20,805 nucleotides of DNA from a virus. Its lineage: Duplodnaviria; Heunggongvirae; Uroviricota; Caudoviricetes. Location: IMG/VR virus record IMGVR_UViG_2778261509_000017; one strand, written 5' to 3'. How positions within the stretch are numbered: position 1 is the stretch's first letter; every line of letters begins with the position of its first letter. Made by a program: the position numbers. Of the stretch, positions 12,001-15,000 are shown piece after piece.

Positions 12001-15000
12001 AATCCCATTGCCAAAGTATATAGTTCGCCGGAATTAAGTTTATCCTCGGTTAACTCATCTCTTAAGTCAATAATTATATCAATATTTGATAAAGGAATTC
12101 CCAGATGATGAATGTAATGCGTTATTAATTGTGGGTTAACCAGATCTAACGTGGTTAATCTCAAGCATATTTCATTCTGTATTAATTCATCAATCGCTCT
12201 TTTATAGTTAGATGGGCGAGTTGGTGAACTGACAGGAATAACTCTTATCCCCATATCTCTAACTTGATTAACCGCATTTATTATAGGGTAATGATCTTCA
12301 GGCGAAATAAAATGCTCTTCAATTAATAATCCATCAATATAAACACCTTGCATATCTGAGCAAGATTTTGAGACTTTCTTTCCGAACTCTATAAGAGTCT
12401 CGTTATAACTCTTTAAGGCAATACCTGAATCAGGGTCAATTGGCACTGGTTCAATTTCGAGTAATGGCAAAATTTTTGATTTCTTTTCAATGGATAGCTG
12501 CGATAAAGCTGATAACTCAGAACGCTTCGCTTTCAGAATAGGAATATATGAAATTGTCATGTTAAAACCTTATACAGAATCAATTAACAATTAATGGTTC
12601 TTCGGACATTGAAATTTATATCGCAAAAATTGGCAAACTCTCCTCGACTACTTACTTGTGGGTATCCTGGCGTAAAAGGAATGACTTGGCAATACCCGGT
12701 GTGATCATAAGTCATTGAAAATGATCATTTTTATCAGTCTTTCTTCCATGATGAATGCTAATGCCATTTGATTTGTTGAGGTGAAAACTGTTAAAAATCA
12801 AAACGATGTAATTGAAATGAACGTTCGGTAGCATTCACGCTTTAAATGTTTCTTTTGTGCTGATTGGATGAATTTTGGTCACTTATGTTGAGAGATGTTG
12901 CAGGAAAAGAAGTTGGCATTGATCTATTGGATAGTTAGAATTGCTGCGGGTGCTTGAGGCTATCTGCCTCAGGCATGAACACCAAAAGGCAGATAGAGAA
13001 AAGCCCCAGTTAACATTCGGCGTCCGGCAAGACGCTTAACATTAATCTGAGGCCATATCTATGCGACACATAGAGATTAGCCTCTTACGGACCGAAAGGT
13101 CAAGGAGAAGCAGGCTATGAAGCAGCAAAAGGCGATGTTAATCGCCCTGATCGTCATCTGTTTAACCGTCATAGCGACGGCACTGGTAACGAGGAAAGAC
13201 CTCTGTGAGGTACGAATCCGAACCGGCCAGACGGAGGTCGCTGTCTTCACAGCTTACGAACCTGAGGAGTAAGAGACCTGGCGAGGGAGAAATCCCTCGC
13301 CACCTCTGATGTGTCAGGCATCCTCAACGCACCCAAATATTGATGCATTACATTGTTGTGTTTGAGAATTTGTTTGAACATAATTTGAACGATATTTAAG
13401 AGGAGATACGCAATGATCCGCAAACTGGTGAGATTGCTTAAAAGTGGTTCAAAGCCGTTCGACATCACTGAAATGCAATTGATGTATGATGAAATCGAAG
13501 AAAAGCAAAGAAAAATTGCTGAGGAAAAAGCAAGGATCAAAGAGGAGCATGCCAATGGATCAAGATTGTCAAGCCGTAGATTCACTATTTGATTACCTTT
13601 ATCTTGACAAAGAGCGCGTAGGTTACTTCACTGCGCAATTATTTCCATCAGGAGTATTGAATGCTGTAAAACAAATCTCGTCCAGTTCTGAGCATTCATT
13701 AAATGAACTTAAAGGTGGCGTTTCATTATTTAATGCCAGGAAAAATGCGGGGGATTCTTTTGCAAAAACGCAAGAGCGGCATTTTGACTCATCATGGTCT
13801 TTACCATTAAATTTTTTTGATAAGTTGCACGAACAAGGCTTGGTGGCAACGAGCTTAGAAAATGCAGAAATTGGAAGTCTGGTGATGGTAAAAGGGCATA
13901 TCAAATTATTTGATGTGAAAATGGCTCATGATGTTCTCCCTATATATAAAGATGCAAAACAAAAAGAACTAAAGCAGACTAAATCACCAGCTCAGAAAAA
14001 AGATATTCAAGAAGAAATTTATCATGCTAAAATGGCTGCTGACATGTTTTCTTTGCTCCCGTTCTCTACACAGATAGAGCTTCTTGACGATCAAGAAAAT
14101 ATATTCTGGATGTCGGTCAAGGCTGATGATTTAGCTTTAGATGTGGGAAATCTTGCATTAAAGTATGGTTCCAGAATACCTGGTGAATGGTATGTCATCG
14201 GTGTTATAGATGCGCTCCCGGATATAAGTGACGAGACAGTTTCAGAGTCAATATTTCCTTCTGACGAAATCAGAGGCACAATAGACTATATGCTTGAAGG
14301 TATTCGTGGAATGATTGGGAGGAGCGAAACTTCCTATGGTATGACACCGCTAGTAATTTTCAGGAAGGTGTCTTAACCGAACTTGTTTTTAGTTTTTTTT
14401 GGCAGATTTTGTCTTTTTTATTATTTATGAGTTACAATCTGTCGCGCTAGCCTGAACAACTGGCACCTGCTGCGCCAGCAGAGAAAACAGATGGCGCACA
14501 AGACCAAATTACACAATTCTGATACCGTTCGTGCCAGCAGGCACGGGCGGTGTTCTCACACATTCAAATATGACTGGTATCAGCACGACCCCTGCACTGA
14601 AGAACAGGCCGAATGGCTGATTCATAACTACCGCAGACGTGGGTATGAGTTTAGGAAAGCCCTCAGCCTCGATTATCGTCACTGGATAATCTACGTCAGA
14701 CTCCCTTATTCCGAACGCCCACCGCGTCCGTCCCGCACATTCCAGCAACGCATCTGGAGGTAACGTGCGGGTATTACTTCGACCTGTTCTGGTGCCGGAA
14801 CTTGGGGTGGTTATCGTTAAGCCAGGTCGTGAATCCATGCAGGTATTCCATAACGGCAGAGTGCTGGTTGAACCGGAGCCAAAAAGCATGCGCGGTCTGC
14901 CGTCCGGAGTTGTTCCCGCCGTTCGCCAGCCGCTGGCGGAAGATAAATCATTACTGCCATTTTTCAGCGATGAGCGGGTGATTCGTGCTGCCGGCGGCGC

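Follow-up and report, generated by a model that had tools for sequence, protein, structure and literature searches.

A putative complete hok/mok/sok toxin-antitoxin module of the hokD/hokW subgroup in a Shiga toxin 2e prophage of Escherichia coli

Introduction

Does a hok-like gene found inside a prophage belong to a complete and regulated toxin-antitoxin (TA) module, or is it a remnant like those known from Escherichia coli K-12? This question is raised by a 20,805-nt stretch of a Caudoviricetes virus (IMG/VR record IMGVR_UViG_2778261509_000017; the whole stretch analysed is hereafter called the window), which contains an open reading frame (ORF) for a Hok-family protein of 51 amino acids (aa). 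The original prediction, made from the nucleotide sequence, described around this ORF an intact-looking type I locus with hok, mok and sok and set it apart from the relBEF arrangement of K-12. Prophages are enriched in hok genes (bioRxiv 10.1101/2025.08.07.668861). The module analyzed here is textbook hok/sok, and its subgroup, annotated in Shiga toxin (Stx) phages for decades and experimentally tested, is already known. The value of the present work is mostly limited to correct annotation: the RefSeq record names the hokD ORF only, and single-base positions can now be given for the mok leader, the Sok RNA and the regulatory RNA elements. As argued below, positions 12936-13334 are very probably a complete hok/mok/sok type I TA module of the hokD/hokW subgroup, which would work according to the paradigm established for plasmid R1.

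Results

A HokD-like toxin gene within a conserved unit

The assignment of the 51-aa ORF to the Hok family was borne out by its match to the Pfam family HOK_GEF (PF01848), which covered the entire profile (positions 1-42 of 42) with 82.4 bits against a cut-off of 22 (E=1.7e-23), and by a match to PHROG 251, 'MokW-like host killing' (E=7e-33). The protein is identical to K-12 HokD at 50 of 51 positions and shares 42% identity with Hok of R1. The sole difference from K-12 HokD, V21A, lies in the transmembrane helix and was absent from the approximately 270 related viral loci sampled. Positions 12560-13420 are 100% identical to E. coli RM10740 and to four porcine enterotoxigenic E. coli (ETEC) strains, and in the identical RM10740 genome the Prokaryotic Genome Annotation Pipeline (PGAP) annotates the same ORF as hokD. 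PADLOC gave no match for Hok.

Homology to other copies spans 12936-13334 (399 bp), a unit that also occurs, at 88-95% identity, in many other Stx and lambdoid phages, in P1-like phages and in plasmids. The Rfam family RF01794 ('sok') matched 12948-13119 on the plus strand over its full length (model positions 1-157) with 107.5 bits, the gathering score being 59 (E=6e-24). This match spans the structured leader of the hok mRNA, which extends from the RNA 5' end to the start codon of hok; beyond it, a permissive Rfam scan of 12400-13700 returned just two matches, both at chance level. The comparison with the hok family gave concordant results for the protein (PF01848), for the leader RNA (RF01794) and for the DNA, which over 12936-13334 has 91.5% nucleotide identity to hokW/mokW/sokW of the Stx phages 933W and VT2-Sakai (the latter also called Sp5).

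The absence of relBE was likewise upheld. With K-12 RelB and RelE as queries, tblastn of the whole window gave a best E of 3.9, and blastn with relBE DNA found nothing below E=0.5, and a relBE remnant or a K-12-like relBEF arrangement in the window was therefore rejected. Between hok and the start of the upstream gene at 12560, 556 nt are free of annotated genes in the identical RefSeq genome.

Promoter, leader and alternative folds of the hok mRNA

The sigma70-like promoter proposed upstream of hok corresponds to the site TTGGCA-17 nt-TAGAAT (Table 1). Taken alone, this site is at chance level (one per 1 kb, compared with a mean of 2.7 in shuffled sequences), and its -35 hexamer falls outside the conserved unit. 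We assign it to hok because its end lies 7 nt upstream of the RNA 5' terminus that the Rfam match indicates and because its TAGAAT -10 box is conserved in relatives.

The RNA was numbered from G12948, and full-length and 3'-truncated forms were folded in silico with RNAfold. The minimum free energy (MFE) of 12948-13335 was -167.1 kcal/mol, compared with -113.3 +/- 5.4 kcal/mol for shuffled sequences (z=-9.9), and none of 100 shuffles was as good. In the full-length fold, nucleotides 1-12, which form the translational activator element (tac), pair with the fold-back inhibition element (fbi) through 12 bp and one bulged C, a helix that closes both the MFE and the centroid fold; the Shine-Dalgarno (SD) region of mok is paired with GCCCCAG (13003-13009), in the anti-SD element ucb, and the mok AUG lies within a small hairpin. 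The complementarity between the two ends of the mRNA had been anticipated, and its 5' segment at 12948-12959 was placed correctly; the partner lies at 13322-13334 and not at 13321-13333, that is, one base to the right. For 3' ends at 13303 and 13310, the predicted fold was a different one, with tac paired to ucb (13001-13007) and the mok SD paired to the downstream complementary box (dcb), and in RNAs with other 3' ends tac was found in a local metastable hairpin with 12966-12976. These three folding states are those of the R1 hok mRNA (summarised in PMC9841398), and in silico the leader forms the pairings that the original prediction had expected of it.

Among relatives, G-C, G-U and A-U variation in the stable hairpin at 13279-13302 preserves its pairing. 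The 60 distinct hokD/hokW-type copies compared were 96% identical, with double changes in 6 of 125 pairs and an invariant tac/fbi helix. Since this helix never varies, covariation within the subgroup is uninformative for it, and the comparison with R1 was used instead. There, compensatory differences were found, the helix being GGCGCUU/AAGCGCC in R1 and GGGUGCUU/AA(C)GCACCC in the window.

A short mok allele and a predicted Sok RNA

The mok leader ORF, too short for the ORF listing, could be read in the sequence as it had been described, with 19 codons and a stop codon that overlaps the hok start codon as ATGA; mok thus reads through the hok SD. Its ATG corresponds to the annotated mokW start of VT2-Sakai. 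The mok and hok ATGs are separated by 56 nt in the window and by 57 nt in hokW, in phage Rac-SA53 and in most relatives, where a mok of 70 codons runs in frame with hok; the 19-codon form arises by a 2-nt deletion just 3' of the mok ATG together with a 1-nt insertion in GGTCAAGG. The 56-nt allele was present in 10 of 79 related viral loci (about 13%), and its exact pattern occurs in at least 120 viral contigs, which rules out a sequencing error private to this record. In a sample of 100 contigs with the 56-nt allele, the 19-codon ORF is retained in 98 and hok is intact in about 96. In R1, mok has to be translated no further than the hok initiation region, and stop codons introduced downstream of the hok start are without effect (PMC9841398); by analogy, the short mok would be expected to work.

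A putative Sok antisense RNA was mapped from the annotated sokW feature of VT2-Sakai. Its predicted fold (-30.7 kcal/mol, z=-5.0) has an unpaired 5' tail of 13 nt, complementary to the mok AUG region, then a long hairpin and finally a U-run. As to the antisense promoter, which had been called plausible, a candidate exists, TTGACC-18-TAATCT, homologous to the region 5' of sokW and placed upstream of the Sok 5' end, which aligns with that annotated for sokW; the site is below consensus, and the consensus scan of the minus strand, in which it remained under the threshold, found no sok promoter. For this reason the sok promoter is assigned by homology to sokW only.

A further feature of the toxin gene is the codon for Tyr47, a candidate site of adenosine-to-inosine editing by TadA that would recode Tyr to Cys. 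A13256 is predicted to be 97% unpaired, and TACG is a context used by TadA. At the equivalent site of K-12 hokD, editing is reported to occur at a low level (6%, Tyr to Cys), and a Cys at the recoded position forms a toxicity-linked disulfide in HokB (PMC12214031). A tRNA-like hairpin at this site was considered and discarded, as local folds gave no convincing mimic of an anticodon arm; the ACGAA stretch is simply predicted to be unpaired.

Table 1 Features of the hok/mok/sok module and of the adjoining cargo in the window
Feature	Position	Strand	Basis
hok/mok mRNA promoter, TTGGCA-17 nt-TAGAAT	12913-12941	+	Consensus scan, 10/12 matches
hok mRNA core, from tac 5' end to end of fbi	12948-13334	+	Rfam match, hokW identity, MFE fold
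tac, mRNA 5' end, GGGTGCTTGAGG	12948-12959	+	Folds; invariant in 60/60 relatives
tac partner in 5' metastable hairpin	12966-12976	+	Pairs nt 3-13 in RNAs ending at 13305, 13315 or 13320
Predicted Sok antisense RNA, ~70 nt	12997-13067	-	Mapped from annotated sokW feature of VT2-Sakai
ucb (anti-SD of mok), AAGCCCCAG	13001-13009	+	Pairs mok SD region (full-length) or tac (truncated)
mok SD, GAGG	13049-13052	+	Held by ucb in full-length fold; pairs dcb in truncated fold
mok leader ORF, 19 sense codons	ATG 13061 to TGA 13118-13120	+	Read from sequence
Putative sok promoter, TTGACC (13103-13098), 18 nt, TAATCT (13079-13074)	13074-13103	-	Homology to region 5' of sokW, VT2-Sakai
dcb, GCCUC	13080-13084	+	Pairs mok SD in truncated-mRNA fold
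hok SD, GGAG, within mok	13104-13107	+	Read from sequence; partly paired in full-length fold; K-12 hokD homology begins here
hok toxin gene, 51 aa (HokD with V21A)	13117-13272	+	Pfam, PHROG, K-12 identity, RefSeq annotation
Tyr47 codon UAC in UUACGAA, candidate TadA editing site (Tyr to Cys)	13255-13257	+	Sequence
Stable 10-bp 3' hairpin, presumed stop for 3' exonucleolytic processing	13279-13302	+	Present in full-length and truncated folds
fbi, CCTCAACGCACCC	13322-13334	+	Pairs tac; paired in 60/60 relatives
Two-gene cargo replacing the usual hok terminator	13335-14430	+	Junction comparison with typical copies
59-aa ORF in cargo	13413-13592	+	PHROG 29688
DUF6414 gene in cargo	13555-14376	+	PHROG 9699

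A missing terminator and the downstream cargo

In 84 of 100 and 72 of 94 sampled related loci, a terminator, AACCCGCTTCGGCGGGTTTT, follows 6-7 nt after fbi. No terminator-like site was predicted in 12500-15000 of the window, 13250-15000 having been checked on both strands. The sequence of the window departs from ordinary copies one base after fbi, where about 1.1 kb of cargo takes the place of approximately 47 nt that include the terminator, and homology to ordinary copies returns near 14432. This cargo, with a 59-aa ORF and a DUF6414 gene, is rare, being present in 6 of 5426 complete E. coli genomes. PADLOC gave no match for either of its products, and an assignment of Hok or of the downstream cargo to a defence system was therefore dropped. 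The description of the locus as intact-looking holds for the module, which is present at full length, and has to be qualified on two points, the missing terminator after fbi and the minority 19-codon allele of mok.

Variation within the unit and exchange of its flanks

In the alignment of 60 copies, the hok coding region is almost invariant and variability peaks at 13058-13075 (alignment columns 107-131), which corresponds to the mok-AUG hairpin and, at the same time, to the Sok 5' tail. At least eight alleles of this region were found, with differing sequences and with the hairpin mostly kept. The variable Sok 5' tail could insulate paralogous hok/sok copies from one another's Sok; E. coli genomes have a median of 2 and a maximum of 10 matching places. 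A sub-lineage of seven viral loci shows a 21-nt deletion in the leader, equivalent to about 13012-13033 of the window, by which the top of the Sok-terminator/target hairpin is gone and tac, ucb, a 70-codon mok and hok are kept.

The flanks of the 399-bp unit were compared in about 200 viral contigs and grouped by a threshold of 80% identity across 120 or more of 200 nt, which gave at least 27 upstream and at least 18 downstream sequence classes. Flank divergence starts at the -10 box on one side and right after fbi or the terminator on the other. This suggests that the hok/sok unit marks a hotspot of recombination or cargo exchange in lambdoid phages.

Prophage setting

The window belongs to a lambdoid Stx2e prophage that is integrated adjoining ompW in E. 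coli. In RM10740 the gene order runs from the integrase through the exonuclease, dicB, repressors, replication genes, a 'sce7726 family protein' and a 'beta family protein' to hokD, which is followed by two hypothetical proteins, DUF968, RusA, DUF1133, a methyltransferase, tRNAs, the A and B subunits of Stx2e, lysis genes and terminase genes. Judged from this order, the hok unit of this Stx2e-converting prophage sits in the nin-type (P-to-Q) region, with the replication genes on one side and the Q-like antiterminator on the other.

Directly 5' of hok, a convergent and overlapping gene pair occupies 10925-12560. One gene encodes the sce7726-family protein (NCBIfam NF033832; PADLOC model 'cll', E=2e-28) and the other the 'Beta protein' (Pfam PF14350, E=4e-52; PADLOC PD-Lambda-2_C, E=1e-41). 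The pair looks like candidate anti-phage defence cargo in the nin region, and in phage Rac-SA53 it also adjoins hok. Further downstream, two tRNA genes were detected by Rfam at 18418-18668 (three are given in RefSeq: Ile, 'OTHER' and Arg), just 5' of stx2eA/stx2eB (18756-19997), a position typical for Stx phages.

Discussion

In this work, we asked whether the hokD-like gene of the window is part of a complete hok/mok/sok module. The elements placed above can be arranged into a mechanism that follows the R1 paradigm. Transcription from the promoter at 12913-12941 would give a stable hok mRNA, in whose full-length form tac and fbi are closed and ucb occupies the ribosome-binding site of mok, so that neither translation of mok and hok nor binding of Sok would take place. 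Slow 3' trimming as far as the hairpin at 13279-13302 would strip off fbi and allow refolding to the tac/ucb and mok SD/dcb pairings. As long as the unstable Sok RNA of about 70 nt (from 13067 to about 12997 on the minus strand) is supplied, it would pair across the mok start region, block mok and lead to cleavage of the duplex. Once the supply of Sok ends, be it by prophage loss, by shut-off of transcription or by prophage induction, the 19-codon mok would be translated through the hok SD, ribosomes would stop at the ATGA overlap and reinitiate on hok, and the 51-aa Hok would enter the inner membrane and depolarise or kill the cell.

As for the role of such a module, hokW-sokW of Sp5 offers the closest guide. 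Experiments have established it as a type I TA system with a toxic HokW, in which mutation of the sokW promoter abolishes protection and sokW supplied in trans restores it (PMC8621323). After addition of mitomycin C, sokW vanishes and HokW appears in a RecA-dependent manner, and deletion of hokW-sokW halves the release of Sp5 phage, the locus thus raising release about twofold (PMC8621323). By analogy, the most likely role of the copy in the window would be an aid to lysis and phage release on induction; prophage maintenance and exclusion of other phages are alternative roles. If the analogy extends this far, the module could modestly shift the timing of lysis, and the release of Stx2e phage and of toxin would change in porcine and feral-pig ETEC and Shiga toxin-producing E. 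coli (STEC) strains.

Several points weigh against a module that works in this way. Compared with the majority allele, mok of the window is shifted in frame, and the sok promoter is weak by consensus, its -10 box matching 3 of 6 positions. Lacking the intrinsic terminator that sets the 3' end of the full-length mRNA in R1 and in most hokD-type copies, the transcript probably continues into the genes beyond, and fbi could be removed with different kinetics. With Tyr47 encoded in place of Cys, toxicity may be limited if the mRNA is not edited (PMC12214031). Chromosomal hok loci tested earlier in E. coli gave no post-segregational killing (summarised in bioRxiv 10.1101/2025.08.07.668861). Finally, family identity, sequence elements and alternative in silico folds were obtained from the window itself, and we infer its transcription, processing, Sok action, toxicity and biological role from R1 and hokW. 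Notwithstanding, the loss of the terminator does not argue strongly against function and a terminator is not essential for membership in the group, because the functional hokW of VT2-Sakai is also devoid of one. The short mok allele, the lost terminator and V21A are minor variants of the copy at 12936-13334.

The same three variants can be read as signs of decay. The locus would then be a relic of the kind represented by the K-12 hok loci, recognisable by homology and no longer regulated or toxic; the 2-nt deletion and 1-nt insertion that shift mok away from the 70-codon majority form, the terminator lost to the cargo insertion, a substitution in the transmembrane helix that none of the roughly 270 related viral loci shares, and the lack of post-segregational killing by chromosomal hok loci (bioRxiv 10.1101/2025.08.07.668861) all fit such a history. 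We consider it very unlikely. A decaying locus is difficult to reconcile with the integrity of the promoter, tac, ucb, both SDs, dcb, the hok ORF, the 3' hairpin, fbi and the Sok hairpin, and with the preservation of the alternative folds. Moreover, the short mok is a common allele, nearly always accompanied by an intact hok ORF, translation of hok in R1 tolerates a mok stop at or beyond the hok start (PMC9841398), and hokW of VT2-Sakai is functional in spite of ending, as the window copy does, without a terminator (PMC8621323).

The junction with the cargo invites a different explanation, namely that a longer operon has recruited the hok unit as its promoter and structured 5' leader, with expression of the 59-aa ORF and the DUF6414 gene rather than Hok as the main output. 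The cargo starts one base after fbi on the same strand, nothing resembling a promoter was detected from fbi to the 59-aa ORF, and nothing resembling a terminator on either strand of 13250-15000. These observations are, however, all absences of predicted signals, Rho-dependent termination or a weak promoter within the cargo being possible; the rarity of the arrangement among complete genomes would also fit a recent accidental junction, and an operon of this kind would be compatible with TA function of the upstream unit. We regard re-use as unlikely. A broader scheme would combine several of these elements: the near-invariant unit, whose junctions with its varied flanks coincide exactly with the ends of the hok mRNA, would offer lambdoid prophages a constant stretch of homology as an anchor for swapping the adjacent cargo, often of a defence-like kind, and in the present prophage such a swap would have removed the terminator, leaving the hok promoter and leader to drive a DUF6414 operon, with the 19-codon mok coupled to hok by termination-reinitiation at ATGA. 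In its entirety, this scheme appears rather improbable. A complete module of the hokD/hokW subgroup is the reading that we retain, and it is compared below with the three systems closest to it.

In hokW/mokW/sokW of 933W and VT2-Sakai, the -10 box of the promoter, tac, ucb, the mok ATG, hok and fbi follow each other in the same order as in the window, and an antisense RNA is annotated at the equivalent place ('SokW antisense RNA'). Both copies lie in Shiga-toxin prophages, and neither has an intrinsic terminator after fbi. They differ in mok, mokW being a 70-codon ORF in the frame of hokW with the ATGs 57 nt apart, and mok of the window having 19 codons, out of frame at a spacing of 56 nt and ending in the ATGA overlap; in the -35 box of sok, which is TTGCCT with a 17-nt spacer in the hokW locus and TTGACC with an 18-nt spacer in the window; and in the sequence of the Sok 5' tail and the mok-AUG hairpin. 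Furthermore, hokW is found near the prophage end, whereas the copy in the window is located in the nin region between two cargo modules.

With hok/sok (parB) of R1, the window shares the architecture and the predicted conformational switch of the RNA. The conserved blocks comprise tac with the metastable hairpin, AGCCCC of ucb, TAGCCTCTTAC...CAAGGAGAAG with dcb and the hok SD, GCTTACGAA, and fbi. In contrast, mok of R1 has 70 codons and uses another frame, and in R1 a terminator hairpin, missing in the window, directly follows fbi. The R1 locus is plasmid-borne, and its role is post-segregational killing.

The K-12 hokD gene (relF) of the Qin prophage is nearly identical to the window in DNA sequence from the hok SD (AGGAGAAGCAGGCTATG, about 13103) to 13333, and its downstream neighbourhood is equivalent, with DUF968/ydfU-like and Q-like genes. 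In K-12, however, everything upstream of about 13103, that is, the promoter, tac, ucb, the mok start and sok, is replaced by relBE, whereas the window has the full leader, in line with the contrast drawn by the original prediction. Since homology of K-12 hokD begins only at about 13103 and relE lies upstream, K-12 carries a 5'-truncated hok. On the evidence of this alignment, the relBE-hokD arrangement of K-12 is a truncated derivative and not the norm, and the copy in the window represents the complete unit of ancestral type.

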